A stretch of 64,000 nt of DNA from Bacteroidia bacterium (GTDB lineage: Bacteria; Bacteroidota; Bacteroidia; M30B66), in the NCBI GenBank assembly GCA_965279035.1, contig OZ257142.1:3392001-3456000 (forward strand), written 5' to 3'. A model generated the notes under the pieces. That model saw nothing but the letters and a program-made list of their open reading frames with translations, had not been told where the DNA came from and did not search any database. How positions within the stretch are numbered: the first letter of the stretch is position 1; each line of letters opens with the position of its first letter. This document shows, piece after piece, positions 12,029-51,579 of this stretch. The position numbers and the translations under genes were made by a program.

Positions 12029-12196
12029 ATGGAAACAATCGACCTACAAAACCAGCTTAAACTGAAACAAACCGAATTGAACCTAACATCAGATATCGAC
12101 AAACGCCAAAAGCTTGTGAATGATATTGAAATCATCAAACACAAGCTTTCGATTGACCGCATAAAACAAATTATAAAACAAATTCAGAACCGTTAG
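12029..12196 (+). CDS. Small coiled-coil-like hypothetical protein (55 aa, not in the ORF track)
   Basis: ATG..TAG frame METIDLQNQLKLKQTELNLTSDIDKRQKLVNDIEIIKHKLSIDRIKQIIKQIQNR; 4-bp convergent overlap with the next gene. Confidence 0.6.
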   Translation: METIDLQNQLKLKQTELNLTSDIDKRQKLVNDIEIIKHKLSIDRIKQIIKQIQNR

Positions 12197-13384: not shown

Positions 13385-14086
13385 TTAATGTAAAAGTGAA
13401 TCGACAAGCACAAGCGTTTCATATTCATCAGATTCAGGATTATACATATTGAGAAGAACCTTATTTTTCTTCATATCTCTATTTGTAATAAAGAACATAC
13501 TTTTATCAAAGTTGTTTTTTTCTGTTGATTGATTTTTAATGAAGTTAACGCTTTCCTCATATTTATTACCAGAATATGAATGTATGAATGATTGACTAAA
13601 ATCAGAAATCTTCAACTCGGTTTTATGTCCATCATCTAGTTCACTCGCAAAAATGTATGTTTTAGTAACTTTATCCAATAACTTAATTTCTAGCAATCTT
13701 TTTTCTGGCGAATTATAAGGCTTATCAAATGTTAATAGAAATCTTTTGTTAGCATATGGACTAATCATTCGATTATTTCCGAAACTCTCATCACAAAAAA
13801 ATGGTGGCTGATTTTTTAATTGTGTCAGTTGTTCGTCATCTAGTGAAATAGATTCGCCACCTTCAGTTTGAAAATCATATGATGGGAAACGTGCGTAACA
13901 TTGACAGCTTTTAAAACTCACAATTACCTGATTTTCATTTTCAATAATTGCTGTATCAATATTTTTTTCGCTAGGATTTTCGCCTGAATCTTTTGATGAT
14001 TTTGAAGAACACGCAAAAATGACAATTGATAAAAAGCCGATTAACAAAAAAGTTAATTTATTTGTTTTGATTGGAAAATTAGCCAT
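13385..14086 (-). CDS. Hypothetical lipoprotein (island cargo)
   Basis: Signal peptide with lipobox IFAC followed by a Ser/Lys-rich linker. Confidence 0.7.
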   Translation of the reverse strand: MANFPIKTNKLTFLLIGFLSIVIFACSSKSSKDSGENPSEKNIDTAIIENENQVIVSFKSCQCYARFPSYDFQTEGGESISLDDEQLTQLKNQPPFFCDESFGNNRMISPYANKRFLLTFDKPYNSPEKRLLEIKLLDKVTKTYIFASELDDGHKTELKISDFSQSFIHSYSGNKYEESVNFIKNQSTEKNNFDKSMFFITNRDMKKNKVLLNMYNPESDEYETLVLVDSLLH

Positions 14087-14268
14087 GTTAGTTCTTTGTC
14101 TGAAATGGGTTTAGCTTATTGTAAGCTTCAAAATAAATTATGCAAATATTATTGTGAAACAAAGTGAAAAGTTACATATTATTCCTAAAAGATGAACTCC
14201 ACATTAATCCGAATGAGTCTCAAGTAAAAAATTAATATTGATGAATATTGAGATTAAAATAATTATAA

Positions 14269-16170: not shown

Positions 16171-16225
16171 GTTGTGAGATTAGATTTTGAATTAACACTT
16201 TAAAAAGTTCGGCATTAGTGGTGAA

Positions 16226-16747
16226 TCAATATTCAATGTGTCCTTTACCATCACAAGTTATACATTTTCTTCCTTCTTTTTCAACGGTATTAGGTTTCAG
16301 TATATTTTCAATCCCAGTTCCGTTACACTTTGAGCATTCGTCTCCTGGAACTCGTCCTTTATTATTTGTATCATCAATATACGAATTCATTTTATTTGTA
16401 TGTCTAAGCCCGCAACTAGGACTACATATAAAGCATTGATATGGGTCTTCGCATAATTTCCATAATCCGTTTGAAACTTCCTTATAACCTTTACCAATGA
16501 ATTCTTTTCCACAAATTGTGCACGTTTCCTTTGATATTTTGTCCCTATTTATTCTTGAGACTGTTCCATAACTATTAGGTTCTGATTTTGTTTCATTTAT
16601 TTTTACTTCTTTGTTGCTTTTCGGAATAATAATTAATGCGATGCTCAAAGTGAAAATTGAAATTCCAATAATAGCAGTTATAATTTTCTTAGCTTTTTTC
16701 TGCTTTATTCGAATTTGACCTTTTGTTAATATATCATTCTGATTCAT
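16226..16747 (-). CDS. Membrane-anchored Cys-rich hypothetical protein
   Basis: One TM helix, CTICG..CSPSC and two DnaJ-type CxxCxGxG motifs (CSKCNGTG, CITCDGKG). Confidence 0.7.
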   Translation of the reverse strand: MNQNDILTKGQIRIKQKKAKKIITAIIGISIFTLSIALIIIPKSNKEVKINETKSEPNSYGTVSRINRDKISKETCTICGKEFIGKGYKEVSNGLWKLCEDPYQCFICSPSCGLRHTNKMNSYIDDTNNKGRVPGDECSKCNGTGIENILKPNTVEKEGRKCITCDGKGHIEY

Positions 16748-16770
16748 CTTATAAATTATATTTTACTAGA

Positions 16771-17229
16771 TTAATTAAAACCACCAGTTATTCCTAACAA
16801 CTTTTTGAATTTGGCAACTTCTGATTCTGATAAGTATCGCTTACGTGGTGATTCAACTCGCACCTTAATTGTTTTTTGGTCTCTCAGATGCTTGTTCAGA
16901 TTCTGAACGGTCATTTTTAGCTGTTTTGCTACCTCAACTATGGTGAACTCCTTTTCGTTTGGATTCACTTTAACAATCCGTTCAGCTTCTATGGAATGAA
17001 TGTGCTCATTATGGTATTGGCGAAATGCACTTTTCAACTTCCATTGAAGTAATTCTGCTTTCTTGTCAAATTCGAATCTAATTTTAGGAAGTGGCTTACC
17101 TTCATTTGCTTTCAACACTGAATTGTAAAATGTTTTCATTGCTGATGCTAATGCCTTATCAACTGTATTATCGTCTATCTCCAGTTGAGCAAAAATCTCC
17201 AGTAGGTTGTTCGCTTGCTGCCTATCCAT
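16771..17229 (-). CDS. HTH DNA-binding protein (excisionase/regulator-like)
   Basis: FTIVEVAKQLKMTVQNLNKHLR..RYLSESEV; overlaps the integrase stop. Confidence 0.65.
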   Translation of the reverse strand: MDRQQANNLLEIFAQLEIDDNTVDKALASAMKTFYNSVLKANEGKPLPKIRFEFDKKAELLQWKLKSAFRQYHNEHIHSIEAERIVKVNPNEKEFTIVEVAKQLKMTVQNLNKHLRDQKTIKVRVESPRKRYLSESEVAKFKKLLGITGGFN

Positions 17230-18484
17230 TTGTTAAATCATTGAATACCTTAATGTTCTCAGAAATCAACTCGTAATTAGGGTTTATATATTCTTGCAAA
17301 GTACTTAATTTCTTATGTCCTGTCATTTTCATGATAGCGTTAAGATTAACGTTGTTATTTACCAAATTGGTGATGAATGTTCGCCTACCCGTGTGGAATG
17401 TTATCAGTTGATACTTTGGAGCATCTTCGTTATCAGCACCATAAACATAATATTCGTTGAATTCATCTAACGTACTCAATGCTTCGTGAATGTACTTGTT
17501 CGTATTCACCTCTGAATACAGACGAAGATTGTAATCATACTTCACAAGTATCTGTTCTGCAAATTGGCTTAACGGTATTTCTACATCTGCTTTCGTCTTT
17601 TTCGTCACAAGCTCCAAAAATCTTCGACCACTTTTTGTCTTCACCATTGATTTTTTCACACTTCTAACATCACTAATTCGAAGTCCTGTATGACAAGCAA
17701 ACAGAAACAGGTCGATTGCTTTCTGATGTGTTTCCTTACTGAATGTTGTCTGGTGTATCAGTTTCATTTCAGCTAGTGTTAAAGCATAGTGGTCATTGCC
17801 CACTACTCGAATACCATATGAATTCAGAACATTAAAATTTGTCAAATGACCATTCAACACCAGCCATTTGCCAAATCCCTTTAAACAGCTGAATCTTTTG
17901 TGGCGTGTTTTCGAACTTTGCTTCTTCGTTAAAAAGATATAGTTTACTATTCGTGGACGGTCATTCGCAAGAAACTGGTTAAAACGTTCCAACCATTCAT
18001 TCGAGTTGATTGCATTCAATGGTATTGAACCAGTCACTTTCTGGTAATCCATCAATGCGTTATAGGTTGACTTATAATCTTTCAATGATTGTATCGACCT
18101 ATCTGGATTCTTGAAGAACAATGCTTTCTCGGTCAAAAACTGCTGGTAGTATTCTGTAAGTTCTGCATCCGACTTCAATCGAATAGAATCAGAATTAAGT
18201 TGAAGCTGTTTCTTCACATAAGCACCATCGGGTTTTATTCGGTGCTCATACATATATGTATCTATGATGTGCTCAATATCCGAATGAACTCTGGCAATTA
18301 TCCTATTCTTACGTTCGTGGTCTTCATCTGACTGCCTCACCCGTTCGGCTTTCTTATCAAAATCTTTCGATTTCACATAAACTGTTGTACTTTCCCGCAA
18401 AGTGCTGATGTGCTTATAATAAATCACAACAAGCTTTTCCTTTTGAACATTTTCCCTGTAGAGGGTAACTGAACTATAACCCAT
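17222..18484 (-). CDS. Tyrosine recombinase/integrase
   Basis: HTGLRISD, TKKT, FHTGRRTFIT, TGHK..EY catalytic residues; ATG 18484 preferred over 18517. Confidence 0.95.
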   Translation of the reverse strand: MGYSSVTLYRENVQKEKLVVIYYKHISTLRESTTVYVKSKDFDKKAERVRQSDEDHERKNRIIARVHSDIEHIIDTYMYEHRIKPDGAYVKKQLQLNSDSIRLKSDAELTEYYQQFLTEKALFFKNPDRSIQSLKDYKSTYNALMDYQKVTGSIPLNAINSNEWLERFNQFLANDRPRIVNYIFLTKKQSSKTRHKRFSCLKGFGKWLVLNGHLTNFNVLNSYGIRVVGNDHYALTLAEMKLIHQTTFSKETHQKAIDLFLFACHTGLRISDVRSVKKSMVKTKSGRRFLELVTKKTKADVEIPLSQFAEQILVKYDYNLRLYSEVNTNKYIHEALSTLDEFNEYYVYGADNEDAPKYQLITFHTGRRTFITNLVNNNVNLNAIMKMTGHKKLSTLQEYINPNYELISENIKVFNDLTNG

Positions 18485-18650
18485 AATTAAAACTATAACT
18501 GAACACGATTTGAACACGATTTAACGAAAATAGTGAAAATACTGAAACTATTTAGTGAAACCTAAACCAACAAAAACGACCTCAACAATGAATATATTAT
18601 CTGTTAATCAATCACTTACAAATTCAATTGTGAAAACAGTGAAAACTGTA

Positions 18651-24813: not shown

Positions 24814-26328
24814 TTATCGGTGACTGCGTTTCGAACTTCCAAATAAAACCCCAAAAATTCCTCGCACTAATTCTCGTCCAATACTGCGCGTAACAGAAGA
24901 ATTCATCACTTCTTCTAACATCGTCTTTTCTTGTTTACCCGATTTTTTGGGTGATGTAGAAGTTGATGTTGATTCTTGTTGTTCTTGCAAACGAGAATTC
25001 AGCATTTCGTATGCACTCACCGGATCGGTTGTTTCGGCATATTTGGCAAATAACTCTGACTGTTGAAGATGATCTTGATATTCACTTGCAGGAAGCGGTC
25101 CCATAACTGCTGCAGGAGGAACGAGATGAGTATGAACCACTTCCGTTGGAATTCCTTTCGCGTTGAGTACAGTTACCAAAGCTTGTCCAATTCCCATTTG
25201 GGTGAGCGTTTCTTCAATCTCGTAAAAAGCCGAACGCGGATAGGTCTTCACAGTATCTTTCAAAGCTTTAGCATCGTTGGGTGTGAAAGCACGTAATACA
25301 TGCTGAAAACGGTTTCCCAACTGAGCCAACACATTCACCGGAATATCTTGAGCCATTTGAGAACAAAAGAATACCCCTACTCCTTTCGAACGAATCAAGC
25401 GGACAATCTGTTCTACTTGATCCAAAAATGCTTTAGGAGCGTCGCTAAATAACAAATGCGCTTCATCGAGGAAGAATACTAATTTGGGTTTGTCTAAATC
25501 GCCTGCCTCGGGTAAGGTTTCATACAACTCAACCAATAAACTCAATAGGAATGTAGAAAACACGGCTGGTTTATCTTGCATATCGCTCACATTGAGCAAA
25601 CTCACCACACCTTGTCCATCAACTTTCAACATCAAATCGGAAATATCAAACGATGGTTCTCCAAAAACAGCCGCTACTCCTTGCTGCTCTAATGAAACAA
25701 TCTTACGCAAGATGGTTCCGGAAGTAGCACTTGAAATAATTCCGTAGCTTTCTTTTATCTCTGCTTTTCCGGGACCTTCGCTTAAGTAATTGAGGACTTT
25801 TTTCAAATCCTGCAAATCCACAATGGGAAGACCTTTATCGTCGGCATACTTAAACAGGATAGACAAAACACCTGTTTGCGTTTCGTTTAGTTCGAGGATT
25901 TTGGCGAGCAAGACAGGACCAAATTCCATCACTGTAGCCCGCATTTGTGCACCTAATTTCCCACTGAGTGAATACAGCTCAATAGGAACTCCTTCGGGTT
26001 GAAAGTCAATGTTTAAGGCGGATGCACGTTCTTCGATTTTAGCATTGGAAACACCTGGTTTACCTAATCCACTTAAATCACCTTTGATATCGGAAAGAAA
26101 TACCGGAACACCTGCTTTACTCAACTGTTCTGCTAAAACCTGAAGCGTACGTGTTTTACCCGAACCAGTAGCACCAGCAATCAAACCATGACGGTTCATC
26201 ATACTCAAGGGAATATTCACCCGAGCATCGGATAAAATTTCTCCATGGAGCACTCCACATCCTAAAAAAATATGTGCTTGACTATCGGGATATGACGATT
26301 GAACTGCTGTGATGAATTCCTGTTTCAT
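24814..26328 (-). CDS. HerA-like ATPase, YjgR/DUF853 family
   Basis: NRHGLIAGATGSGKT, DIKGDLSG, FFLDEAHLLF, RLIRSKGVG; ATG 26328 preferred over 26361. Confidence 0.92.
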   Translation of the reverse strand: MKQEFITAVQSSYPDSQAHIFLGCGVLHGEILSDARVNIPLSMMNRHGLIAGATGSGKTRTLQVLAEQLSKAGVPVFLSDIKGDLSGLGKPGVSNAKIEERASALNIDFQPEGVPIELYSLSGKLGAQMRATVMEFGPVLLAKILELNETQTGVLSILFKYADDKGLPIVDLQDLKKVLNYLSEGPGKAEIKESYGIISSATSGTILRKIVSLEQQGVAAVFGEPSFDISDLMLKVDGQGVVSLLNVSDMQDKPAVFSTFLLSLLVELYETLPEAGDLDKPKLVFFLDEAHLLFSDAPKAFLDQVEQIVRLIRSKGVGVFFCSQMAQDIPVNVLAQLGNRFQHVLRAFTPNDAKALKDTVKTYPRSAFYEIEETLTQMGIGQALVTVLNAKGIPTEVVHTHLVPPAAVMGPLPASEYQDHLQQSELFAKYAETTDPVSAYEMLNSRLQEQQESTSTSTSPKKSGKQEKTMLEEVMNSSVTRSIGRELVRGIFGVLFGSSKRSHR

Positions 26329-26380
26329 AGTTTGCGGAAACGACAAATTACGGACAGGCAAGCATCGGAATAAAGGCTCT

Positions 26381-28525
26381 TTATGCTTTTTTCTTCACAG
26401 CGGCTTTTTTATGACGAGCAGTCAAGCGAAACACCTGTACCGACAAGGGAGGCAAATCAATTGCGATAGAATGTGGGCGACCATGTTTCTCAACATCGGT
26501 TGATTCGTACTTGTGTTTTGCCGAATAATCACTTCCCCAGTAGGCTTTGCTATCACTATTGAATATGACCGAATATTTACCACCATCTGGAACACCAATT
26601 CGGTAATTTTCCTGAGGAACTGGAGTGAAATTGCAAGCTATCACCAAATAATCTTCCGGCTTTTCTCCTCTGCGGATATAAGTTAAAGTACTGTTGCGAC
26701 TATCGTTTAAATCGATCCACTCAAATCCTTTTGTATCGAATTGCAAGCTGTGAAGAGCTGGTTCTTTGCGGTATAAAGCGTTCAAGTCTTTTATGAGTTT
26801 TTGCAAACCGCTATTGGGCTCAAAACCTGTGAGATGCCAGTCGAGACTCGTTTTGTAATTCCACTCGCTATATTGTCCAAACTCATCACCCATGAAAAGT
26901 AATTTACTTCCCGGATGCGTGAACATGTAGGAATACATAGCGCGCAGATTGGCAAATTTCTGCCATTGATCGCCCGGCATGCGATCGATAAGCGAACCTT
27001 TTCCATGAACTACTTCATCATGCGAAAGTGGTAGCATGAAACTTTCGGTGAAGGCGTAATAAATCGAGAATGTTACATCGTTTTGATGATGTTCGCGGTA
27101 GAGCGGATCGGTTTTGAAATAACGAAGTGTATCGTGCATCCAGCCCATCATCCATTTCATCCCGAAACCTAAACCACCATCGCGCACCGGACCGGAAACT
27201 TTTGGCCAAGAAGTCGATTCTTCGGCAATCATCTGGATTTCGGGAAAATGATAATACATCGTTTCATTCAATTCCTTGAGGAAAGAAATGGCTTCGAGAT
27301 TTTCGTTTCCACCGTAAATATTGGGCTCCCACTCGCCATCCTTGCGAGAATAGTCGAGATAGAGCATTGAAGCTACCGCATCAACCCGTAAACCATCCAC
27401 TTTGTACACATCGGCCCAAAACATAGCGGAGCTGATGAGGAAAGAACGCACTTCAAATCGTCCGTAATTGAAAATGAGGCTCTTCCAATCGGGATGAAAG
27501 CCTTTACGCAAATCTTGATGTTCGAAAAGATGCGTGCCGTCGAATTGCGCTAGGGCAAAACTATCCTCTGGAAAATGCGATGGAACCCAATCGAGTATTA
27601 CTCCAATTCCAGCTTCGTGAAAAGCATCTACCATCGCCATGAATTCCTGTGGTGAGCCAAATCGAGAAGTTGGCGCGAAGAATCCTGTGGTTTGATATCC
27701 CCATGAACCCGAATAAGGATGTTCAGTTAAAGGTAGAAACTCAACATGCGTGAAACCCATTTCCTTCACGTATGCGACAAGTTCTTTGCTTAAATCGTTG
27801 TAGCTGAGATAATCGTCTTCTTTGGAACCGGGCTTTTTCCATGATCCAGCATGGACTTCATACACCGACCAAGCTTTGGATGCCGAACCGCGACCTTTTT
27901 GTCCTAACCACGTTTTTGCTTTCCAAGAATAATTCAAATCCCACACGATGGAAGCGCGCTTAGGTGGCACTTCGTTGAAGAATGCAAATGGATCGAATTT
28001 CTCCAAAATGCGACCTGTTTGTGCATTACGAAGCATGTATTTGTACAAACTACCGTGTCCAACTCCGGGAATAAAAACTTCCCAAATTCCTGAGCCATCA
28101 CTTCGTGCCGACATGTGGCCTTGCTCTGGATTCCAACCATTAAAGTCACCAATCACACTAACTGCGGATGCATTCGGTGCCCAAACGGCAAAGAAAGTTC
28201 CTTTAACTCCATTGTTATCGCATAAGTGAGCGCCTAATTTTTGGTAGAGGCGATAGTGTTTTCCCTGACGGAAGAGGTAAATATCAAAATCGGTGAAGAG
28301 CGAAAAACTCGAAGGATCATCTTTTCCATTTCCTAAGTTCTGAGAGCTAGCCAAAAGATCGGTTGTCTTTACTTTGGTTTCTTTAGTTATTTCGACTTTT
28401 GCTACAGCCGATTTGACCGCTTTTTTAACCGATGATTTAGGTGTTGGAGTTTCGCTTTTTTTACTGACAGCTTTCTTAGCTGGTTTCACTTCCACGATTT
28501 CGGCAGTATCTTTCTTTTTCGCCAT
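26381..28525 (-). CDS. glgB: 1,4-alpha-glucan branching enzyme
   Basis: FAVWAPNA, YEVHAGSW, SWGYQ, DWVPSHFP, DGLRVDAVASMLY, AEEST, LSHDEVVHGK. Confidence 0.97.
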   Translation of the reverse strand: MAKKKDTAEIVEVKPAKKAVSKKSETPTPKSSVKKAVKSAVAKVEITKETKVKTTDLLASSQNLGNGKDDPSSFSLFTDFDIYLFRQGKHYRLYQKLGAHLCDNNGVKGTFFAVWAPNASAVSVIGDFNGWNPEQGHMSARSDGSGIWEVFIPGVGHGSLYKYMLRNAQTGRILEKFDPFAFFNEVPPKRASIVWDLNYSWKAKTWLGQKGRGSASKAWSVYEVHAGSWKKPGSKEDDYLSYNDLSKELVAYVKEMGFTHVEFLPLTEHPYSGSWGYQTTGFFAPTSRFGSPQEFMAMVDAFHEAGIGVILDWVPSHFPEDSFALAQFDGTHLFEHQDLRKGFHPDWKSLIFNYGRFEVRSFLISSAMFWADVYKVDGLRVDAVASMLYLDYSRKDGEWEPNIYGGNENLEAISFLKELNETMYYHFPEIQMIAEESTSWPKVSGPVRDGGLGFGMKWMMGWMHDTLRYFKTDPLYREHHQNDVTFSIYYAFTESFMLPLSHDEVVHGKGSLIDRMPGDQWQKFANLRAMYSYMFTHPGSKLLFMGDEFGQYSEWNYKTSLDWHLTGFEPNSGLQKLIKDLNALYRKEPALHSLQFDTKGFEWIDLNDSRNSTLTYIRRGEKPEDYLVIACNFTPVPQENYRIGVPDGGKYSVIFNSDSKAYWGSDYSAKHKYESTDVEKHGRPHSIAIDLPPLSVQVFRLTARHKKAAVKKKA

Positions 28526-28579
28526 GCGAGTTGGATGTTCTTATTATGTGAACAATATTTATTTCGTTAATCAGGTTGA

Positions 28580-30244
28580 TTAATCGAGGTAGTGTTTGAC
28601 AAATTTGACTAAGCTTTGAAGCGGAATCAGTGCCCAATCGGGACGGTTATTTATTTCGTATCCCAACTCGTAGATTGCCTTTTGAAAGGAATATATCTGA
28701 AGTAGATCATTCACTTTATCGTCCGAAGGAATTAAGCCACTGCCTAGTGTAGTTTCGATGTAGGATCCAAGAAAATAGCGACTTACAAAGTGATACCAGA
28801 TATCGGCTACAGGGATGAGTTTATTTTGAAGATCTTGATCATGTTGAAAATTCTGAAAGAGTGTTGCGTAGGCTGCATAGCGATAGGAACGCATCATTCC
28901 TGCAACATCTTTTAGAGAAGGATATTTATCGCGTCGTTCGGTATGAGGTTTATCCGGTTCACCTTCAAAATCAAGAAGGAAAAAATCGCCATTCGAAACC
29001 AATACCTGTCCGAGATGGTAATCACCATGAATGCGAATACGCTTGCCTTGCAGAGGTTTTTCAAGTACACGACCAAAGAAAGCTTTTACCTTTTCTTTGT
29101 CTTTAATCATCGAAGCAGCATCGTCACGTAGGGTGGGGGGTACGCGATGTAAATTTCGTTCGAGAAGTTCAAATTTACTTTCCACCAAATACATCAATTC
29201 TTTATAAAGTTTCTTTTGAAAATCTTCATCTACTTCTTCTGCTGCAAATGCAGGATTGCTATTGCTATTTAATAAAGCAAGATGAAATTCAGCTGTCCGT
29301 TTTCCTAATAACCGAGCTGCATGAAATACATCTTCTCCAATTAATTGTTGTAAAGCTTCAGGTGTTTTTTCCCAAGAAATAGAAAGCACATGTGGCTTCA
29401 AAGGCAAAGGGCGAAGATGATATTCTGTTTCAATGACTTGTTTATAGAAGCGATCTAATTGCAATACAGTATTTTTCCAAGCATCACCTTCGTTAGGAAT
29501 GAGCTGTTGCAACATCACCAACAGCATCGGCGGTTTTTCGGGATGCTGAATTTCTATCGAACCTGCATAAGCTGGTAGCTGATGAAATGTATCCTGCGTT
29601 GTGAGAAAATTCACGATTTCCCAATCGGGATTGATCATGTATTCGACTTTACGAAACAGTTTAAGGAAATAGGTATCGTTGAAGATGACAGCCGAATTGC
29701 TCTGATCTGCTTTGAGCACATGCGACTTCAAGGGCGAAGGCAATCCGTGTTGCATGAGGAATTTCCCAGAGCTCGCTAGCAATGGATAATGATCACCTTT
29801 TTGAATTTGCCGTTTATTCATGAGCAAAAACAGGGTATTCCTGAAATCTTCATCATAGATTCCATCTATTAAATAACCTACAGAGTTTCCTTCTCCAATG
29901 CGCGCTATAACTGCATCAGCAGGAAAATTACCTAAACCTGCAAACCGCTCATGAATGAACACGATAGGTAATGTATAAATCTCAGTTGGCCCATCAGGAT
30001 AACGGACTTTCAGCAAAAGAACACGAGCAATACTGGAAGCCGTTTCGAGTGGAATATTCTGATAAATTTTTATCCCCGTTATCAATCGAGCTTTTCCACC
30101 AAACCAGCGCATCCGCTTAAGAAATACGGGAAGTATTTGATTTTCGAGTTGATGAATACAGCGTTCTTGCTGAAATAAATCGTTCCATTCAGCATCGATG
30201 TGAGGCTGAGCGATGTCTTTAATTCGTTGCAATGATTCAGGCAT
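28580..30244 (-). CDS. Maltokinase (Mak/Pep2; resembles the C-terminal half of TreS-Mak fusions)
   Basis: RWFGGK, DQSNS, LKLFRK, RIHGDYHLGQVL, DFEGEP, DVAGMMRS, YELGYEINNRPDW; lies between glgE and glgB. Confidence 0.9.
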   Translation of the reverse strand: MPESLQRIKDIAQPHIDAEWNDLFQQERCIHQLENQILPVFLKRMRWFGGKARLITGIKIYQNIPLETASSIARVLLLKVRYPDGPTEIYTLPIVFIHERFAGLGNFPADAVIARIGEGNSVGYLIDGIYDEDFRNTLFLLMNKRQIQKGDHYPLLASSGKFLMQHGLPSPLKSHVLKADQSNSAVIFNDTYFLKLFRKVEYMINPDWEIVNFLTTQDTFHQLPAYAGSIEIQHPEKPPMLLVMLQQLIPNEGDAWKNTVLQLDRFYKQVIETEYHLRPLPLKPHVLSISWEKTPEALQQLIGEDVFHAARLLGKRTAEFHLALLNSNSNPAFAAEEVDEDFQKKLYKELMYLVESKFELLERNLHRVPPTLRDDAASMIKDKEKVKAFFGRVLEKPLQGKRIRIHGDYHLGQVLVSNGDFFLLDFEGEPDKPHTERRDKYPSLKDVAGMMRSYRYAAYATLFQNFQHDQDLQNKLIPVADIWYHFVSRYFLGSYIETTLGSGLIPSDDKVNDLLQIYSFQKAIYELGYEINNRPDWALIPLQSLVKFVKHYLD

Positions 30245-30256
30245 ATTACTAATTGA

Positions 30257-32212
30257 TTATGATAAGACTGAAATTTGAAAAATATGTGCTGCAATCAACT
30301 TCGGGTCGAGTTCAATATAATTCCATTGTCGATTCCAGCGGTAATGATTATCGTCCATTAAATCGTGCATTTCAAGTGTATGTCCTTCGTGAGCCGGCAT
30401 CAGCGTTTCAGGAAGTTTTACCCAACCTGTTTGCTTGTTTACTGGATCGAGATTGACAACAGTCAGAACTTTATTGGTTCCGTCCCGACTGATCTTGTAA
30501 TACGCGATTAGTTGTTCGTTATCTGTTTCGCAAAATAGAATGTTAAAGGTAGTATGAAAGGCGTCATTTTCTTTACGAATTCGGTTGATCTTTCTTATCA
30601 ATTCACGAAATGGTGTTGATGCATGCCAATCCCAATGACGAGCCTCGTATTTTTCAGAATTAAAATATTCTTCTTTCCCCGGCATAGGTTCATTTTCGAG
30701 TAATTCGTAAACCGGACCATACATCCCATAATTGGACGATAAAGTTGCTGCTAAAACATAGCGTGCAGCCGAATGTGCATGATCAGTTTTTTGAATATAG
30801 AATGGTAGAATATCGGGTGTATTGGGCCAGAAATTTCCGCGGAAATAATCACGTAATTCTGTTTCTGTGAGTTCTTTAAGGTATTTTTCGAGTTCAGCTT
30901 TTGTTTGTCGCCAAGTGAAGTACGAATACGATTGTTGAAACCCAACTTTAGCCAAGCGCGCCATAATTTTAGGTCGGGTGAAGGCTTCGCTCAAGAAAAT
31001 CACTTGGGGATGATCCCGTCGCATTTCACTCATTATCCACTGCCAGAAAATAAAGGGTTTTGTGTGTGGATTATCTACTCGAAAGATGTTGATTCCTTTC
31101 GCTATCCAAAACTCAATAACACTTTTTAATTCGTTCCATAGATTTTCCCAATCTTCTGTTTCGAAGTTGATGGGCAACACATCTTGGTATTTCTTAGGTG
31201 GATTTTCAGCATACTGAACAGTGCCATCGGGACGCCAACGAAACCATTGAGGATGCTCTTTTACGTATGGATGATCGGGTGAACATTGGTAAGCTAAATC
31301 GAGTGCGATTTCGATACCTTGCTTTTTTGCAGATTTCACCAATTTTTCAAAATCAACCATGGTTCCCAATTCAGGGTTGATGGCTTTATGTCCGCCCAAA
31401 TGAGAACCTATTGCCCAAGGTGAGCCCGGTTCGCCTGCTTGAGCAGTGGTGCTATTATTCTTACCTTTCCGATGGGAAATTCCGATGGGATGAATTGGAG
31501 GAAAATAAAGTGTATCAAATCCCCAATCGGCAATGAGAGGCAAGAGTGCCTCACAATCTTTGAATGTTCCAGTACGAGTAGGATCGGGTGATGAGGAGCG
31601 AGGAAAAAACTCATACCATGTACTGAATTGCGCTTTTTCACGCTCAACAACTAATGATAGAATTTGTCCATTAGTTTCATTTTCACGTAAGGGTAAGGAT
31701 TCAATTAAATCTTCCAAACGATCGCTTTTCGCAATAATTACAGCATTTACATACTGTTCTTCGTTCTCGAAAAGATCAGCAGTGGTGTTGAGCCAAACAG
31801 CATCTTCCCCTTTCGATTTCTTAGCAATTTTTCGCAAGTGCTCTGCTCCTATTCGTAATTCTAAATCGAGCTTCTCCCCTGTTTCAGCCTTTTTACAAAA
31901 ACCATGATGCCAGCTTAAGGCATGATCTATCCAAGCCACGACGGTATATTCATACATTCCGGGATTTCCTGTTACAAAACTTCCTGTCCATTCATCATTA
32001 TCCACTTCATGAAATGGTTCTTCCACCCACTTTTTCTCCCCTACTTTTCGATGTAGCAAGATTGCTCGAACGATGTCATGTCCATCTCCATATACATGCG
32101 CCGTTACTGCAAGCGTTTCATTTGGAATACGTTTTACCGGAAATTGTCCCTCGTCTATTTGCGGACCGATATGTTCGATTACCGCTCGTGCTTTGGCTAT
32201 TGCTCCTTTCAT
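30257..32212 (-). CDS. glgE: Alpha-1,4-glucan:maltose-1-phosphate maltosyltransferase
   Basis: WYEFFPRS, PPIHPIG..RKGKNN, AENPPKKYQD, FRVDNPHTKP, SEAFTRP, PNTPDIL. Confidence 0.96.
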   Translation of the reverse strand: MKGAIAKARAVIEHIGPQIDEGQFPVKRIPNETLAVTAHVYGDGHDIVRAILLHRKVGEKKWVEEPFHEVDNDEWTGSFVTGNPGMYEYTVVAWIDHALSWHHGFCKKAETGEKLDLELRIGAEHLRKIAKKSKGEDAVWLNTTADLFENEEQYVNAVIIAKSDRLEDLIESLPLRENETNGQILSLVVEREKAQFSTWYEFFPRSSSPDPTRTGTFKDCEALLPLIADWGFDTLYFPPIHPIGISHRKGKNNSTTAQAGEPGSPWAIGSHLGGHKAINPELGTMVDFEKLVKSAKKQGIEIALDLAYQCSPDHPYVKEHPQWFRWRPDGTVQYAENPPKKYQDVLPINFETEDWENLWNELKSVIEFWIAKGINIFRVDNPHTKPFIFWQWIMSEMRRDHPQVIFLSEAFTRPKIMARLAKVGFQQSYSYFTWRQTKAELEKYLKELTETELRDYFRGNFWPNTPDILPFYIQKTDHAHSAARYVLAATLSSNYGMYGPVYELLENEPMPGKEEYFNSEKYEARHWDWHASTPFRELIRKINRIRKENDAFHTTFNILFCETDNEQLIAYYKISRDGTNKVLTVVNLDPVNKQTGWVKLPETLMPAHEGHTLEMHDLMDDNHYRWNRQWNYIELDPKLIAAHIFQISVLS

Positions 32213-32607: not shown

Positions 32608-33483
32608 ATGACGACACATCAAAGAGGTAAAATCAAACTTCTAGATTATTGGGGATTTATTGGAATTCACTTTGTTCCATTTTTAGCAATATTCACAGGA
32701 ACGTTTGCATTCGATTGGTACTTGGCATTAGCACTTTACCTTATTCGTATGTTTTTTATTACCGCTGGATATCACCGATATTTTTCACATCGAACATTTA
32801 AAACATCTCGGGTATTTCAGTTTATAATGGCTTTCATGGCTCAAACGAGCATGCAAAAAGGTGCATTATGGTGGGCTGCCAATCATCGAATTCACCACAA
32901 ATACAGCGACACACCTGCCGATCCACATTCAGCCAAGTTGTTCGGATTCTGGTATGCACATGTAGGCTGGATTGTTGGTCCCGATTTTAAAGAAACTCGT
33001 TATGATCTGATAAAAGACATGGCGAAATACCCCGAATTAGTTTGGCTCAATAAATACCATTGGGTTCCAGCTGCTTCTTTAATGGCCTTTTGTTTATTCC
33101 TTGGGAATTATGTGAATGGTGCTGGATTACTTGATTTTCAAGCAGGTGTTAGCACTTTGTTAATTGGTTTCTTTTTGAGTACAGCTGTCCTATATCATGG
33201 AACGTTTACCATCAATTCACTCATGCACGAAATGGGCTTCCCTCGCTACAAAACTACCGACGAGAGTAAGAACAGCGTCATTCTTGCTTTAGTAACTTTA
33301 GGTGAAGGCTGGCACAACAATCACCATTACTATCAAAGCACTGCACGACAAGGTTTTTATTGGTGGGAAATTGATATTACCTATTACATTATTCGGCTAC
33401 TCGGATTCTTTAGAATAGTATGGAATATTCGAGAAGTACCGAAACATGTAAAAGATGGTAATCACTTGAAGAGCGCTGCTTAA
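32608..33483 (+). CDS. Delta-9-type acyl-CoA/acyl-lipid desaturase
   Basis: His boxes GYHRYFSH, HRIHH, GEGWHNNHH; TATGTTTG box at 32533. Confidence 0.93.
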   Translation: MTTHQRGKIKLLDYWGFIGIHFVPFLAIFTGTFAFDWYLALALYLIRMFFITAGYHRYFSHRTFKTSRVFQFIMAFMAQTSMQKGALWWAANHRIHHKYSDTPADPHSAKLFGFWYAHVGWIVGPDFKETRYDLIKDMAKYPELVWLNKYHWVPAASLMAFCLFLGNYVNGAGLLDFQAGVSTLLIGFFLSTAVLYHGTFTINSLMHEMGFPRYKTTDESKNSVILALVTLGEGWHNNHHYYQSTARQGFYWWEIDITYYIIRLLGFFRIVWNIREVPKHVKDGNHLKSAA

Positions 33484-34370
33484 ATAATAGTCGCAAGAGC
33501 AAATACGACATATTCGATAAAAAACAATCCCCAAAAAAGCATGTAAAATTGCTTGATGGATGTATCGTTTGTTAAATCGATTCGGTAAGCCATAAAGAGG
33601 AAAAGTGCCCATAATATTGCATGACTCGAAATCATGAAAATGGGTGATGGGATTTGGCTTATAGCAGCAAGAATTATTACACTCAAATACGCTAGTGAAA
33701 CCACGATTAAACCAGCTCTAAAAGCACCTGTTCGTCCTGTTTTAACTGCCAACGTTTGAAAAGAATATTCTGCATCACCAAGTGTATCGGGAATATCTTT
33801 GAACCAAGCAATTCCTAAGCTAAATGCTACCACAAAAATAATCAAGGAACTAATGAGAGCATTGACTTCGGTATGATGAAAAAATGCCTGTTGGAAATGC
33901 CAATAAAACCCCAAATTAACTAATACACCTCTGACCAAAGCAATAGCTGAAGCTGCAGCTAAATGACTGCGTTTTAATTTCAAGGGAGGAAGTGAATATG
34001 CAGTTCCGATAAGCATAATACTGGCTATTAGTCCTAAGAATGCGAGTGACAAATACGCAGCTGAAATCAAGGAAATTCCTCCACTAATCAACACGATAAT
34101 TAATCCTGCCTGTCTTGAAAGTTCGCCTGATGCGATGGGCAACCAAGGTTTATTGACTTTGTCGACATCCACATCGGACCATTGATTTAAACCGGTGATG
34201 TAAATATTACAGCCCCAAGCACTGATTAAACTAATACTTACAATACCGAGTTGCTCAATTGAAATCGCACTTTCATTGAGAGCAATAATATAGAGAGCAA
34301 TAATGCTGAGTGTACTTCCAATAATGGTATGCGGGCGACTAAATTGCCAGAGAATTTTGAGTTTATTCAT
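33480..34370 (-). CDS. Homogentisate phytyltransferase-like UbiA prenyltransferase (VTE2/HPT type)
   Basis: LWQFSRPHTIIGS, NIYITGLNQWSDVDVDKVNKPWLPIASGE, YSLPPLKLKR, FKDIPDTLGD, FYMLFWGLFFIEY are characteristic of the HPT clade. Confidence 0.85.
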   Translation of the reverse strand: MNKLKILWQFSRPHTIIGSTLSIIALYIIALNESAISIEQLGIVSISLISAWGCNIYITGLNQWSDVDVDKVNKPWLPIASGELSRQAGLIIVLISGGISLISAAYLSLAFLGLIASIMLIGTAYSLPPLKLKRSHLAAASAIALVRGVLVNLGFYWHFQQAFFHHTEVNALISSLIIFVVAFSLGIAWFKDIPDTLGDAEYSFQTLAVKTGRTGAFRAGLIVVSLAYLSVIILAAISQIPSPIFMISSHAILWALFLFMAYRIDLTNDTSIKQFYMLFWGLFFIEYVVFALATII

Positions 34371-35124
34371 GATTTGCAGGCACTATATAAAACCAACTGA
34401 CAGGTGCCCACCAAGGCCCATGAATTCCAGATTTTATCAAACATCCAGTTGGTAGATGTTGTTTAGCATGAGCACTCATTTTAGTATGAGTTTCTGATTT
34501 TAATACACTAACAACTCCATCCCAAGTAATGGTGAAGAGGTTAATAGGAAGTATGTAAGTGAATAATAATCTTGTCCACGAAAAGGGTTTAACGAAAGGT
34601 GTTAATACGAGTTGACCAATTGTAGTAGTGAAAATAATTTTGAGAAAAACCAACACATTAGGCTGTAATACTTCAGCCACGAAAAATCCTTTTTTACCAT
34701 GTTGTTTGATTAATTGTGCCTTTTGTTTTGCATCGAAATGATGGTATGCATTAAAGAGTGTGCAGATATCTTGTTGCTGAGATTGCCAGGTTAATGCATC
34801 AACAGCCGTTTTGTTTGTATGTGCTTGATTGGGTAAATTATTTGGGAATTCTGGAAATAAATCGGTCAATTCCAAGGGAAATTGTTCCCATTTTTTATCC
34901 GATTTTCTTAGTTCTTTCAATAATGATAGTGCTGGCCCACCATTGCCTGATGCCAAATCTGTCCAACTGTTTGCTTGAGCTAAAACTACTGCTTCTACGA
35001 ATTTTTCTTTGATGGGTTTATACACACCAAATTGAGCTACTAACCAGCCTATATAGGTCGTTTGCATTCCTCGAAATACTTTTGGAAACCACGATTTATC
35101 CTCCCATTCAAACATCTTTAGCAT
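34363..35124 (-). CDS. Putative class I SAM-dependent methyltransferase with hydrophobic C-terminal part
   Basis: Gly-rich motif I DLASGNGGP, LTDLFP, AVDA, FNAYHHF; 8-bp overlap with the HPT gene. Confidence 0.65.
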   Translation of the reverse strand: MLKMFEWEDKSWFPKVFRGMQTTYIGWLVAQFGVYKPIKEKFVEAVVLAQANSWTDLASGNGGPALSLLKELRKSDKKWEQFPLELTDLFPEFPNNLPNQAHTNKTAVDALTWQSQQQDICTLFNAYHHFDAKQKAQLIKQHGKKGFFVAEVLQPNVLVFLKIIFTTTIGQLVLTPFVKPFSWTRLLFTYILPINLFTITWDGVVSVLKSETHTKMSAHAKQHLPTGCLIKSGIHGPWWAPVSWFYIVPANHE

Positions 35125-35147
35125 GTATCGGTTATCTTCACAAACCT

Positions 35148-36605
35148 ATGGATAAGGATTCAGTCATTTTAATTTTTTCGGGATTACTGGTGTTATTTAT
35201 ATCTATAACGCTCGAAATGCTTTCCCGTAAAGGAATTCTACCACAATGGATAGGGCGGAAATTACTGCATATTTCGGCCGTTAGCACCTGCGCTTTTGTA
35301 CCATTGTATTTAGAGGATTTATTGTTTCTTCAATATATAGTTGTCATCGCCGAAATCATCTTGATTTATTTGGTGTGGAAAGGAATTTTATTTGAAGAAG
35401 AGCATAAACGAAAAAGTTGGGGCATTGCTTTGTTTCCCTTACCATTTATCGCTTTTCTGCTTTTGTTTGAAGATCAACGTTGGTTAATTTCTTTTCCAAT
35501 GCTCATACTTGCTTGGAGTGATGCACTAGCCGCTATTGTTGGAATTGCTCTTGCTAAGCGATATTTTACAATGAGTGGTGATCCCAAATCCTTAGCTGGT
35601 AGTTTTGCTTTTTTTATTTCGTGTGTATTATTATTCTTCTTAGGTCGGTTCGGATTTTTCCCGCTTTTCCCCAATTGGTCTGCTATTCCAATTAGCAACT
35701 TCTTTGTATTAGCTGCTTTATTTTCGATAATTCTGTCAGCTGTTGAAGCACTAGGATCTCAAGGTTCCGATAATTTATTTATCCCCATTGCTGCACTAAT
35801 CTTGTTTTTGCGCATGGATGAAATCATCTCGCACTTACACGTATTTTCTATCCTTGTTTTATTTGCTGGATTATTCGTTTTAATTACCGTTAAGAAAAAT
35901 TCCTTAAGTCCGAGTGGTGCATTTACCGCAGCATTCATGGGGATTTCTGTGGCCGAATTTGCAGGTACAGAATGGTTGATTTTACCTGCTGTTTTTTTCT
36001 TAAGTAGTACGCTTATCGGTAGAATGTTCAAAGGAAAATCGACTCAAAGCGATTCAAAGCAGGGAAAAGCGCGTGATGCTGTTCAAGTAATATGTAATGG
36101 TGGCGTTTATTGGCTGATGGCTTTGTTATTTCCTTATTTCCCGGATTTAAGTTTAGTGATGATTGTGTCGATGGCGATTGCCACATCGGATACTTGGGCT
36201 TCGGAAATTGGTATTGGCTTGAAAGGAAAAACGTATGATATTATTTACTGGAAAAAGCTTCCTTCAGGAATTTCTGGAGGCGTTTCAATCATTGGCACTA
36301 TAGCAGGATTTATAGGTGCATTTATTATTGCATGCATCGGTTGTATTTTGATAGATCATGTTGAATTTACTTACATTCTTCTCCTTACTTCATTAGGCTT
36401 TTTAGGAATGTTATTAGATAGTTTTATCGGTTCCCTTTTTCAAGCACGCTATAAAAATTCGGAGGGCATTTCGGACGATAAAAAAGGAAATCATGTTCAA
36501 TTAATTCACGGATATTTATGGTTTAGTAATGATCTCGTTAATTTATTGAGTAATCTTATAGTAACAGCAATCGTTTTTACCTACTGTTATCAAATCCTAA
36601 AATAA
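35148..36605 (+). CDS. Fusion of phytol/dolichol kinase-like domain (VTE5-like) and DUF92 domain (VTE6-like)
   Basis: N-half RKLLHI, SDALAAIVG, KSLAGS, DNLFIP; C-half RDAVQVICNGG, ATSDTWASEIG, GISGGVS..GT, DSFIGSLFQARY, NDLVN; ATG 35148. Confidence 0.85.
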   Translation: MDKDSVILIFSGLLVLFISITLEMLSRKGILPQWIGRKLLHISAVSTCAFVPLYLEDLLFLQYIVVIAEIILIYLVWKGILFEEEHKRKSWGIALFPLPFIAFLLLFEDQRWLISFPMLILAWSDALAAIVGIALAKRYFTMSGDPKSLAGSFAFFISCVLLFFLGRFGFFPLFPNWSAIPISNFFVLAALFSIILSAVEALGSQGSDNLFIPIAALILFLRMDEIISHLHVFSILVLFAGLFVLITVKKNSLSPSGAFTAAFMGISVAEFAGTEWLILPAVFFLSSTLIGRMFKGKSTQSDSKQGKARDAVQVICNGGVYWLMALLFPYFPDLSLVMIVSMAIATSDTWASEIGIGLKGKTYDIIYWKKLPSGISGGVSIIGTIAGFIGAFIIACIGCILIDHVEFTYILLLTSLGFLGMLLDSFIGSLFQARYKNSEGISDDKKGNHVQLIHGYLWFSNDLVNLLSNLIVTAIVFTYCYQILK

Positions 36606-37715: not shown

Positions 37716-38175
37716 CCCATTATGCGGTTAAAAATTAAAAATATTCTTCAATAATGTTCATCACTTATGCCAATTTTCAACACTTGATAAAAGCTTTTAA
37801 ATAAAATTATTTTAAAGTAAAATTAGGTTTAAAAACGGATCAGTGCGATGGCTTTGTCTGGGCGGCGAGGGTGTGTTTCGACTTTGACTAGAAAATTGAA
37901 TGTCCGAGCAGAATGGTCGAAAAAAAGCCCTGCGGGTGAGCAGCATCGTCCAGACTTGAACTTTTTTATTCGTTCGTGTTTGTTTTTTAAAGGTACTCAT
38001 GAGGGCTTCGCCGTTGGTTAATTCTTGTTTCAAGACAAGAATTAACACGTCGTAGACAAACTTGAATGATGTAATGACAAGGTACTTAAACAGCCTTATT
38101 TCAATGATTGATATGAAATATTTATATATAAAAGTCAACCGCACAATAGGTTGAATTAATTTCATTTATTCAATT

Positions 38176-50208: not shown

Positions 50209-51579
50209 CACACCCGTCCAAGACGTTTTAAAATAGGGTAAAAAAATAGAGTTGGTCCGGATTAAATCCGGTATGTTTGAGTTACGACACAAAAACATAA
50301 ACCAACTCCGGCATGAAGATCACATTATTTGCTCAGATATTCCAAAAAATTAAGCGAGATTCTTTCAATAAACTAGTAGAAAAGTTTGAGTCCAATAAAC
50401 ATTGTAAAGGCAATGATGCTTGGTCTCACTTTGTGACAATGGTTTTTTGCCAGTTTTCCAAGTCTAATAGCTTAAATGACGTTTGCAATGGAATGCGATC
50501 AGCAACAGGCGATTTAAATCATCTGGGAGTGTCAAAAGCCATGAGGCGATCATCGTTGGCATATAATAACCAACATCGCAACTGGGAGCTGTTTCAAGCG
50601 ATGTATTTTAACTTGTATGAGCAGTTTGAATCAACCTTAAAAACAAGCCGAAAGCTGCTTCCCAAACGTAAAATCTATCTGCTCGATTCAACCACGATTG
50701 ACCTTTGTCTTAAAGTGTTCGACTGGGCACTATTTCGAAAGAAGAAGGGAGCTATAAAACTTCACACAGTCCTTGACTTTGACGGCTGTATGCCCGTTTT
50801 TGCTGATTTGAGTGATGGCAAAAAGCACGATGTAAATGCAGCACATGATATTGAATTTCCCACAGGAAGCATTGTTGTAGCTGATAGAGGATATGTCGAT
50901 TTTAACTGGATGAGAAAATTAGATGAACAAGGAGTATTCTTTGTTATTCGAGGAAAAGAAAACATTCAGTTTGAACTTTATGAGCGAACTAAGAGCCCAA
51001 CCGATGAAGCAAATCCAGACTTGCAATACGACTGGAAAGGCTTTTTGAGTTTACCTCAATCAAAAGAAAAATACCCGCAAAAGCTCCGAATGGTTCAGAT
51101 CTGGGATGAAGAACAACAGATATATCTTGAACTTCTTACAAACAATTTTTCTTGGACAGCATCGACCATTTCAGAACTATATAAACGTAGATGGAGCATC
51201 GAATCGTTCTTCAAGGAGATCAAAACACACCTGAAAATCAAGTCTTTCATAGGAACCAGCATGAATGCTGTTCTGATACAGATTTGGACAGCACTAATCA
51301 CCATACTGCTTTTAAAGACACTTCAAAAGGAAGCAAAACACTCTTGGCACCTCTCAAATTTGGTGTCCTTTATTCGATTAAATCTCTTTGTGAAAATTGA
51401 CCTCAAAAAATGGCTTGATAAACCCTTTTTAGATGATGACGAAATTGATAAACTGGAATTACAAATGTCCCTTTTTTAAATTATAGAGGGTTTAATTTTC
51501 AAAAGAGCGTTCTTTGATGAGTAATCTCGCATCAAATCAGGATTGTATTTTCGTTATACAAACGTCTTGGACGGGTGTG
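50209..51579 (+). mobile_element. IS4-family insertion sequence (1371 bp)
   Basis: Perfect 20-bp TIRs CACACCCGTCCAAGACGTTT (50209-50228 and 51560-51579); 9-bp TSD ATAATATGT (50200-50208 and 51580-51588). Confidence 0.95.
50313..51479 (+). CDS. IS4-family DDE transposase (DUF4372 N-domain)
   Basis: LLDSTTI, VADRGY, YKRRWSIESFFKEIK (YREK-like signature). Confidence 0.95.
   Translation: MKITLFAQIFQKIKRDSFNKLVEKFESNKHCKGNDAWSHFVTMVFCQFSKSNSLNDVCNGMRSATGDLNHLGVSKAMRRSSLAYNNQHRNWELFQAMYFNLYEQFESTLKTSRKLLPKRKIYLLDSTTIDLCLKVFDWALFRKKKGAIKLHTVLDFDGCMPVFADLSDGKKHDVNAAHDIEFPTGSIVVADRGYVDFNWMRKLDEQGVFFVIRGKENIQFELYERTKSPTDEANPDLQYDWKGFLSLPQSKEKYPQKLRMVQIWDEEQQIYLELLTNNFSWTASTISELYKRRWSIESFFKEIKTHLKIKSFIGTSMNAVLIQIWTALITILLLKTLQKEAKHSWHLSNLVSFIRLNLFVKIDLKKWLDKPFLDDDEIDKLELQMSLF

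Follow-up and report, generated by a model that had tools for sequence, protein, structure and literature searches.

A three-gene cassette in Bacteroidota that may encode a cyclase-free offshoot of the tocopherol pathway

We have found, in a 64,000-nucleotide stretch of a Bacteroidia genome (contig OZ257142.1, positions 3,392,001 to 3,456,000 of the forward strand; 'the window' below means this whole stretch), a compact set of three genes that may form a self-contained pathway to a methylated, non-cyclised prenyl-benzoquinol derived from homogentisate, in effect an offshoot of the tocopherol pathway without its cyclase. We give this reading a probability of roughly 0.55. The cassette comprises a UbiA prenyltransferase gene of the homogentisate phytyltransferase (HPT) family (33480-34370, minus strand, 296 aa), a gene that we call mid (34363-35124, minus strand, 253 aa), whose product is predicted to adopt a class-I S-adenosylmethionine (SAM) methyltransferase fold and which overlaps the start of the prenyltransferase gene by 8 nt, and, divergent from mid, a gene in which a VTE5-like domain is fused to a DUF92 domain (35148-36605, plus strand, 485 aa). 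An initial annotation of the window had claimed three such adjacent genes, and the map of open reading frames (ORFs) contains all of them as described.

HPT-bearing Bacteroidota split into two mutually exclusive types, one that carries mid and one with a canonical-looking tocopherol gene set, and the window is of the mid-type. Where mid stands, three tailoring enzymes of the other type, a cyclase-like protein and two methyltransferases, are absent.

The prenyltransferase belongs to the HPT family by sequence

On the NCBIfam model NF009525 ('homogentisate phytyltransferase') the prenyltransferase scores 308.9 bits against an equivalog cut-off of 226, and on sister families it reaches 66.8 bits (ChlG), at most 34 (DGGGPS) and 17 (MenA); its match to PF01040 has an E-value of 1.6e-33. 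Four cyanobacterial HPTs, from genomes reached by a 16S primer scan, score higher on NF009525 (466-506 bits) and share 37-40% identity with the window protein. We regard the window prenyltransferase, on its sequence, as a divergent member of the HPT family. An ebo-type UbiA protein (EboC) was also considered as its identity and was rejected, at 22 bits against a cut-off of 250.

The window protein and the cyanobacterial HPTs have in common the motifs NQxxDxxxDKxNKPxLPxASGExS, YSLPPxxLKR, VRGxxVNLG and FKDIPDxxGD, which in the window version read NQWSDVDVDKVNKPWLPIASGELS, YSLPPLKLKR, VRGVLVNLG and FKDIPDTLGD and align with all four cyanobacterial sequences. The VRGxxVNLG block is missing from ChlG in an alignment comparison, and 51 alignment positions are at least 95% conserved across all 64 HPT rows. 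These rows (55 HPTs of the cassette radiation, 5 other Bacteroidota HPTs and 4 from cyanobacteria) were placed with 4 cyanobacterial ChlG sequences in a 68-row tree, obtained by a quick IQ-TREE search under LG+G4 with the root on a very long outgroup branch, in which the HPT rows, the window's included, split from ChlG at an SH-like approximate likelihood ratio test (SH-aLRT) support of 100. Membership of the HPT clade, as the initial annotation had proposed, is thus supported by the equivalog score, the motifs and the grouping with cyanobacterial HPTs against ChlG. Additionally, public sources label homologues 58-89% identical to the window protein, in Bacteroidia bins, as 'homogentisate phytyltransferase'.

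The cassette is conserved across Bacteroidota

Co-conservation of the three genes across the phylum had been set in advance as a test that could refute the initial annotation, and it did not do so. A profile scan for the fusion yielded 80 distinct loci (L002, a duplicate of L003, was dropped), and ORF clustering found the fusion in 70 of these, the UbiA gene in 54 and mid in 51. All three genes recur in the order and orientation of the window in 48 of the 80 loci, and in 3 further loci mid is present and the UbiA gene is cut by the end of the contig. The UbiA gene adjoins the fusion without mid in 6 loci, and 23 have neither gene, although in several of these the upstream sequence is too short for a judgement. 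By record label, the complete cassettes come from Chitinophagales (18), Flavobacteriales (13) and Saprospirales (10), plus others. By ORF clustering, any further real gene recurs in 6 of the 80 loci at most, the larger clusters (12-17 loci) being opposite-strand shadow ORFs inside the three genes themselves.

HPT is rare in the phylum, scoring above cut-off in only 3 of 401 evenly sampled Bacteroidota genomes, one of which is the query genome. In the Bacteroidota genomes searched whose fusion is not linked to HPT, an HPT gene was found all the same (3/3). Fusion carriers also occur in Ignavibacteriota and Chlorobiota bins (L044 and L053, also L049 and L076). One complete cassette (L028) comes from a bin labelled 'uncultured Gemmatimonas sp.'; on the tree its HPT is the partner of one from a bin labelled Chryseobacterium (SH-aLRT 99), which points to wrong labelling or mixing of the bin rather than to a cassette beyond Bacteroidota.

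Two exclusive pathway types

Counted by genome and not by independent event, and mostly in bins of unknown completeness, the tocopherol cyclase family PF14249 was found in none of 20 mid-type genomes (0/5 and 0/15) and in all ten HPT-bearing genomes that lack mid (5/5 with a separate HPT lineage, 5/5 with an HPT beside the fusion), against a background of 12 in 401 genomes of the phylum. Conversely, mid was found in none of the ten cyclase-bearing genomes (0/5 and 0/5), with a positive control of 2/2. The genomes without mid are those of Neolewinella lacunae, Lewinella sp. W8 and three more with the separate HPT lineage, and five with an HPT beside the fusion (together G133, G352, G411, G412 and G415-G420; loci L295-L304, of which L298 belongs to G133, and L008, L018, L021, L025 and L035).

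The ten genomes also carry the remaining parts of a tocopherol-type tailoring set. In one of them the HPT gene is followed by two ordinary class-I methyltransferase genes, and tandem orthologues of both of these canonical methyltransferases are present in 10/10 genomes without mid, as against 0/10 mid-type genomes. One of the pair is 54-55% identical to a protein encoded beside HPT in Chlorogloeopsis and Microcoleus that JGI names "tocopherol O-methyltransferase". One translated cyclase-like protein keeps YTEKDWG and FPKTWVWMQSNHF, the motifs proposed for cyclases in an earlier study (PMC4963081). A geranylgeranyl-reductase-family gene is present in 10/10 canonical-type genomes compared with 11/20 of the mid-type, and the complete chromosome of the mid-type Phnomibacter has none. 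Judged by these genes, ten Bacteroidota, among them Neolewinella lacunae KCTC 42187 and Lewinella sp. W8, carry a canonical-looking tocopherol gene set.

The two types share their remaining machinery. The VTE5-DUF92 fusion occurs in nine canonical-type genomes examined (all but G352), where it adjoins HPT in 5/10 and is full-length at locus L309 of G133. HPTs of the two types intermingle on the tree, so that the type label needs only 2 state changes, and no column of the 64-row HPT alignment separates them. HPTs of the same radiation as the window's, 52-59% identical to it, occur in genomes with the cyclase-like gene (5/5) and both canonical methyltransferases (5/5). A change of type is seen even within one HPT sub-clade, in which L006 has mid and L008, L012, L018, L021, L025 and L035 do not.

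mid has a predicted methyltransferase fold

The product of mid matches no Pfam or NCBIfam family at E ≤ 0.01. Its AlphaFold model (pLDDT 95.7) has a class-I SAM methyltransferase fold, all 12 of its PDB profile matches at E ≤ 10 are methyltransferases, and the Foldseek rows obtained with the model at E ≤ 0.001 are all methyltransferases except two, a GRAS-domain complex. In VIA-align, where 954 of the 1000 chains re-aligned to the model reach Z ≥ 8, the top match is NovO (Z 16.2, root-mean-square deviation 3.1, 201 aligned of 230), followed by CouO (Z 16.0) and, lower, Coq5 (Z 14.3) and phenol O-methyltransferases (Z about 13.9). The aminocoumarin C-8 methyltransferases NovO and CouO and the benzoquinol C-methyltransferase Coq5, which match the model best over its full length, have phenolic or quinol rings as their substrates. 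They share only 10-11% identity with mid, which for its part has a conserved N-terminal ELEDxxWFPxxLRxxQ element and a hydrophobic helical segment at residues ~157-222. On the strength of the model, mid is best described as a divergent class-I methyltransferase-fold protein; the initial annotation had called it methyltransferase-like, a call that the predicted fold supports and no sequence model does.

Across 40 aligned homologues a DLxSGxGxP loop is conserved (D56 and P64 at least 90%, G60 invariant), and D88 and N125..H128-H129 are invariant. Going by the usual motif positions, and by a HMMER alignment of mid to Plu4890, the loop and D88 may be SAM-binding motif I and the acidic residue after strand 2. 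The N-terminal element is likewise conserved, with E-x-E-D..F-P...R..Q invariant, and its invariant acidic residues E6, E8 and D9 are located in an N-terminal lid. For a complex of the prenyltransferase with mid, a prediction made without controls scored 0.19 against a mark of 0.32, which weighs neither for nor against such a complex.

The wider mid family has no Pfam model and comprises 2425 clusters (50% identity) at E ≤ 1e-3 among 1.84 billion representatives. A scan of species genomes with a profile from 12 closer rows found at least 585 mid-like stretches, in Acidobacteriota, Planctomycetota, Chlamydiota, Chloroflexota, Myxococcota and Bacteroidota. In the 80 loci inspected (L092-L171) there was no HPT or DUF92 gene; the mid-like gene lies beside a non-HPT UbiA gene in 11 and beside a type III polyketide synthase (PKS) gene in 6. 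At a Bacteroidales locus (L165, 1581-6777) the order is UbiA, type III PKS, Methyltransf_25, FAD aromatic hydroxylase and mid-like gene, and one member of the family is fused to an FAD aromatic hydroxylase. Thus, the family recurs in what appear to be lipophilic-phenol pathways. One distant member matches Methyltransf_25 at E 0.005.

In a eukaryote protein set labelled Mallomonas, one entry of 451 aa (P0304) has the N-terminal half of a mid homologue linked to a UbiA domain. It looks as if the two overlapping bacterial genes had been read through into one product, from a bacterial associate or contaminant in algal data.

The kinase fusion

The C-terminal half of the fusion (35865-36605, plus strand) is a DUF92 membrane domain of the VTE6-type phytyl-phosphate-kinase family; DUF92 we take to be COG1836. 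It scores 193.5 bits on Pfam PF01940 (cut-off 27.5), a family that all 40 of 40 homologues match as well, and falls below the cut-off of NCBIfam TIGR00297 (102.4 against 205.85 bits). By sequence it is a divergent family member fused to another domain.

That other domain, the N-terminal half (35148-35861, plus strand), is a candidate SEC59/DGK1/VTE5-type membrane domain resembling CTP-dependent prenol kinases. Among its homologues PF01148 is the sole recurrent family (6 of 40 full-length proteins and 4 of 38 N-terminal halves, best E 2e-7). A profile of the 38 N-terminal halves matches proteins of 234-264 aa over nearly their full length in 4/4 cyanobacteria, at E-values from 1.7e-28 to 2.1e-23, and two of these matches bear names among 'SEC59/DGK1/VTE5 family protein', 'phytol kinase' and 'diacylglycerol/polyprenol kinase family protein'. 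A pattern SDAxAAxxG...KSxxGS is conserved in the N-terminal halves and appears to resemble the motif of SEC59/DGK1/VTE5 proteins. A PDB profile search with this half gave a single match, at chance level (E 0.48).

The AlphaFold model of the whole fusion has a pLDDT of 92.0, and a Foldseek search with it returned nothing at E ≤ 0.001. VIA matches to two membrane CTP-transferases, one per half (the CDP-archaeol synthase CarS, 5guf, Z 7.2 to the C-terminal half; CdsA, 4q2e, Z 5.9 to the N-terminal half), are within noise for helical proteins and are consistent with the assignment without being evidence for it. The divergent phytol-kinase and DUF92 fusion of the initial annotation is supported by the DUF92 score and by the reach of the N-terminal profile to cyanobacterial VTE5-family proteins.

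A proposed pathway

If the family memberships are a guide to function, the fused kinases would phosphorylate a free isoprenoid alcohol twice to give a prenyl diphosphate. Passages of two reports describe VTE5 as a phytol kinase and VTE6, a COG1836 protein, as a phytyl-phosphate kinase (PMC9782597, PMC10849223). Phytol would be the most likely alcohol, with geranylgeraniol or farnesol possible. HPT would then condense the prenyl diphosphate with homogentisate, supplied by an HPPD encoded elsewhere, to a 2-methyl-6-prenyl-1,4-benzoquinol (MPBQ type). Finally, the translationally coupled mid, on the evidence of its NovO-, CouO- and Coq5-like fold and its context, would methylate the quinol head, most plausibly on carbon to give a 2,3-dimethyl head (DMPBQ or plastoquinol type), although O-methylation is possible. 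With mid as the only tailoring enzyme, the end product would be a membrane quinol or quinone without ring closure.

Mid-type genomes have neither a cyclase-like gene nor the canonical methyltransferases, and for this reason we favour a quinol or quinone end product over a chromanol. The initial annotation had left the product as MPBQ/DMPBQ-like or tocochromanol-like; with PF14249 in 0/20 cassette genomes the former is favoured and the tocochromanol half of that proposal is disfavoured. Because the HPTs of the two types are intermingled and undistinguished, the simplest inference is that the window's enzyme makes the same MPBQ-type product as its relatives in canonical-type genomes, from homogentisate and a C20 prenyl diphosphate. 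We infer the use of homogentisate and of phytyl diphosphate or geranylgeranyl diphosphate (GGPP), with decarboxylation, by the window HPT from indirect support, namely the co-occurrence of tailoring genes with its relatives and the presence of HPPD in related genomes. The searches called for by the initial annotation returned HPPD above cut-off in 5/5 cassette genomes and a mixed result for geranylgeranyl reductase, present in 11 and missing in 9 of the 20 mid-type genomes. Where that reductase is missing, a saturated chain would have to be scavenged, and its absence fits either salvage of a reduced prenol or use of an unsaturated one. That the prenol is phytol, and that it comes from algae, we infer only; a role of the product as a lipid antioxidant is a guess.

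Several observations weigh against this interpretation. The N-terminal half of the window fusion has no Pfam match even at E ≤ 10; tblastn of the fusion against cyanobacterial VTE5-like loci gives at most 29-32% identity over 50-142 residues, and against cyanobacterial DUF92 loci nothing at 1e-3, so that only profiles link them. The same fusion occurs without HPT in Ignavibacteriota and Chlorobiota genomes (HPT in 0/2 searched), and therefore the kinases are not tied to HPT everywhere and would serve another client pathway there. The tree has no plant HPT or HST, MenA, UbiA or DGGGPS rows and says nothing on chain length (C20 versus solanesyl). HPPD is common in the phylum (113/201 sampled Bacteroidota), which makes its presence in 5/5 cassette genomes only permissive, and both HPPD presence and cyclase absence are known from relatives of the window, the nearest being an incomplete 2.2-Mb bin. 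Additionally, mid matches no methyltransferase hidden Markov model, its best PDB profile match reaches only E 0.015, and its fold alone cannot tell C-methylation, O-methylation and a non-methylating role apart.

Alternative readings

The pathway could run as proposed on an endogenous prenol, geranylgeraniol or farnesol that the cell sets free from diphosphates of its own, and so lead to an unsaturated, tocotrienol-type quinol; we consider this possible but doubtful. The VTE5 family includes farnesol and geranylgeraniol kinases, according to passages of the two reports cited above (PMC9782597, PMC10849223), the 9 of 20 cassette genomes without a geranylgeranyl-reductase-family gene have no de novo saturated chain by that route, and the fusions without HPT in Ignavibacteriota and Chlorobiota suggest general prenol recycling. 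However, a cell that makes GGPP has no need of two kinases, and the strict linkage to HPT suggests an external alcohol; the mid-UbiA read-through in the Mallomonas data fits life beside phototrophs. None of these points settles the matter. More of a departure, and unlikely in our estimate, is that mid replaces tocopherol cyclase non-homologously, its methyltransferase fold closing the chromanol ring, either while SAM remains a bystander cofactor or by methylating a double bond of the side chain, to yield a tocochromanol-like product. Methyltransferase-fold enzymes can act as cyclases, as SpnF, LepI and TleD do, and such a role would suit the strict exclusivity between mid (20 genomes without PF14249) and the cyclase-like gene (10/10, against the background of 12/401), the switch between them inside the one HPT sub-clade, and the invariant acidic E6, E8 and D9 in the lid. 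Yet what mid takes the place of is not one gene but three, namely the cyclase-like gene and the two canonical methyltransferases, and a different end product accounts equally for the exclusivity. The conserved SAM-motif-like pattern and a His-His motif typical of phenol methyltransferases, best fold matches that are true C- and O-methyltransferases, and a wider family found in operons without a prenyl-quinol context all count against ring closure. We hold it no likelier that mid founds a new class of enzyme for vitamin-E-like lipids, one that alone does the work of two methyltransferases and the VTE1 cyclase, for example through ring closure triggered by methylation or assisted by SAM, with heterotrophic Bacteroidota making a tocochromanol-type or otherwise unknown quinol antioxidant from the phytol of the phototrophs on which they live.

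Less probable again is an HST-like enzyme, or one with another acceptor, whose product would be a plastoquinone-like or new redox quinone serving electron transport and not antioxidant defence. A 2,3-dimethyl-prenyl-benzoquinol is the head group of plastoquinol, and enzymes of the HST type or with other acceptors also fall within the HPT family; HPT, HST and HGGT are listed as one group in part of a published account (PMC5133447). Our tree had no HST reference, and the NCBIfam model for a methyl-plastoquinone methyltransferase, MpqE, shows that such quinones exist in bacteria. Against this, close linkage to kinases of the VTE5/VTE6 type suggests free alcohols that are short (C15-C20), and the cassette has no linked gene for a long-chain prenyl-diphosphate synthase. 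A complete tocopherol-type tailoring set accompanies other HPTs of this radiation, and the two groups cannot be told apart by any HPT residue. We prefer the cyclase-free pathway to a methylated prenyl-benzoquinol.

Comparison with known systems

The cassette resembles the tocopherol pathway of cyanobacteria and plants in its HPT-family prenyltransferase, its VTE5- and DUF92-family kinases and the HPPD of its relatives. The known pathway uses the kinases VTE5 and VTE6, the prenyltransferase VTE2/HPT, the methyltransferases VTE3 and VTE4 and the cyclase VTE1. The cassette differs in that the kinases are fused (485 aa), whereas the cyanobacterial ones are separate proteins of 234-270 aa, and in that mid-type genomes have no VTE1-like cyclase (0/20) and no VTE4-like or second canonical methyltransferase (0/10). 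In their place is the mid family, which was not found in 3 cyanobacterial genomes, and the host belongs to Bacteroidota. With the canonical-looking set of their own phylum, mid-type genomes share the same HPT family, in one case as sub-clade-mates, and the same VTE5-DUF92 fusion; they differ from it in the cyclase-like gene, the two tandem methyltransferases and the geranylgeranyl-reductase-family gene that it has (each 10/10), and in mid, which it does not have (0/10).

Cyclase-like proteins of unknown function have been described in non-photosynthetic bacteria, in the pertinent passages of one study from Peptoclostridium, Clostridium, Haloplasma, Rhodococcus and Corynebacterium (Firmicutes and Actinobacteria) and there without a link to HPT (PMC4963081). 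The word 'Bacteroidetes' has 0 occurrences in the text of that study, and mid-type cassette genomes, in contrast to the species it covers, have no such protein. According to reviews, only photosynthetic organisms make tocochromanols (PMC5745509). Our literature search, with subscription-only papers outside its scope, returned nothing that reports HPT, VTE5/VTE6 or tocopherol genes from Bacteroidota.

The name HPT is not new for these genes, because automatic annotation already gives it. The fusion of VTE5 with DUF92 may itself have been published before; the PlantSEED work of Seaver and colleagues in 2014 reportedly made use of the clustering of COG1836 with phytol kinase in bacteria, or of their fusion. 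The new elements appear to be the cassette, the proposed role of mid and the two-type pattern.

Genomic context of the cassette

The ORF of the fusion spans 35082-36605 (plus strand), and we place its start at 35148 because the product in the protein collection has 485 aa; a TTG codon further upstream, at 35082, is unlikely to be the start in use. The gap between the divergent starts of mid and the fusion is then 23 bp. A sigma-70 promoter scan found 18 sites against 18.4 expected, which is chance level.

Several ORFs of the window carry sorting domains of the type IX secretion system, which points to a Bacteroidota host, and its closest relatives are bins titled Flavobacteriales, with 76-98% protein identity over four genes. 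A fatty-acid desaturase gene (PF00487; 32608-33483, plus strand) adjoins the cassette, as the initial annotation had noted. Among 81 loci, however, it does so only in the nearest relatives (L001, L002/L003, which are one contig, and L038), and since its adjacency is confined to them we rejected it as part of the module. The same annotation saw no cyclase or HPPD in the window, and neither was found among 49 of 52 selected ORFs, the unscanned ones being short (7999-8298, 9374-9649 and 37812-38165).

Elsewhere in the window, a run of minus-strand genes (24814-32212) encodes a HerA-like ATPase, a GlgB-type branching enzyme (26381-28525), a maltokinase-cap protein (28580-30244) and a GlgE maltosyltransferase (30257-32212), and looks like a GlgE-type alpha-glucan pathway in Bacteroidota. 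The region from about 11250 to 18520, with a GC content of 0.30-0.33 against about 0.38-0.40, a resolvase gene (11251-11850), a tyrosine integrase gene (17222-18517) and several family-less ORFs, is probably an integrated mobile element. Two transposase genes lie elsewhere, one IS200-like of the Y1 type (46-507) and one of the DDE type with DUF4372 (50313-51479). A 1143-aa fusion (55133-58564) combines a B12-binding domain, a MeaB GTPase and methylmalonyl-CoA mutase domains in an IcmF-like architecture. The stretch from 58000 to 64000 has a very low GC content (0.25-0.32) and contains genes for an MBOAT acyltransferase (58821-60284) and an Acyl_transf_3 protein (61498-62625); it may be an island for surface-polysaccharide modification that was gained by horizontal transfer.

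Implications

By comparative genomics, a canonical-looking tocopherol gene set is present in some heterotrophic Bacteroidota, and a second, larger group, to which the window belongs, has a reduced cassette. Cultured carriers exist for both, namely Phnomibacter sp. MR (L056) for the mid-type, and Neolewinella lacunae KCTC 42187 and Lewinella sp. W8 for the canonical type. Should mid turn out to be a cyclase, it would, together with the canonical sets of Lewinella-like genomes, overturn the view that tocochromanols belong to phototrophs only.

If the pathway that we favour is correct, a phylum known for menaquinones would possess a new membrane quinol, and the mid family would gain its first functional handle. 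The natural VTE5-VTE6 fusion could simplify the engineering of phytol salvage. Additionally, the cassette would provide a testable link between the turnover of algal chlorophyll and the lipid antioxidants of bacterial associates.

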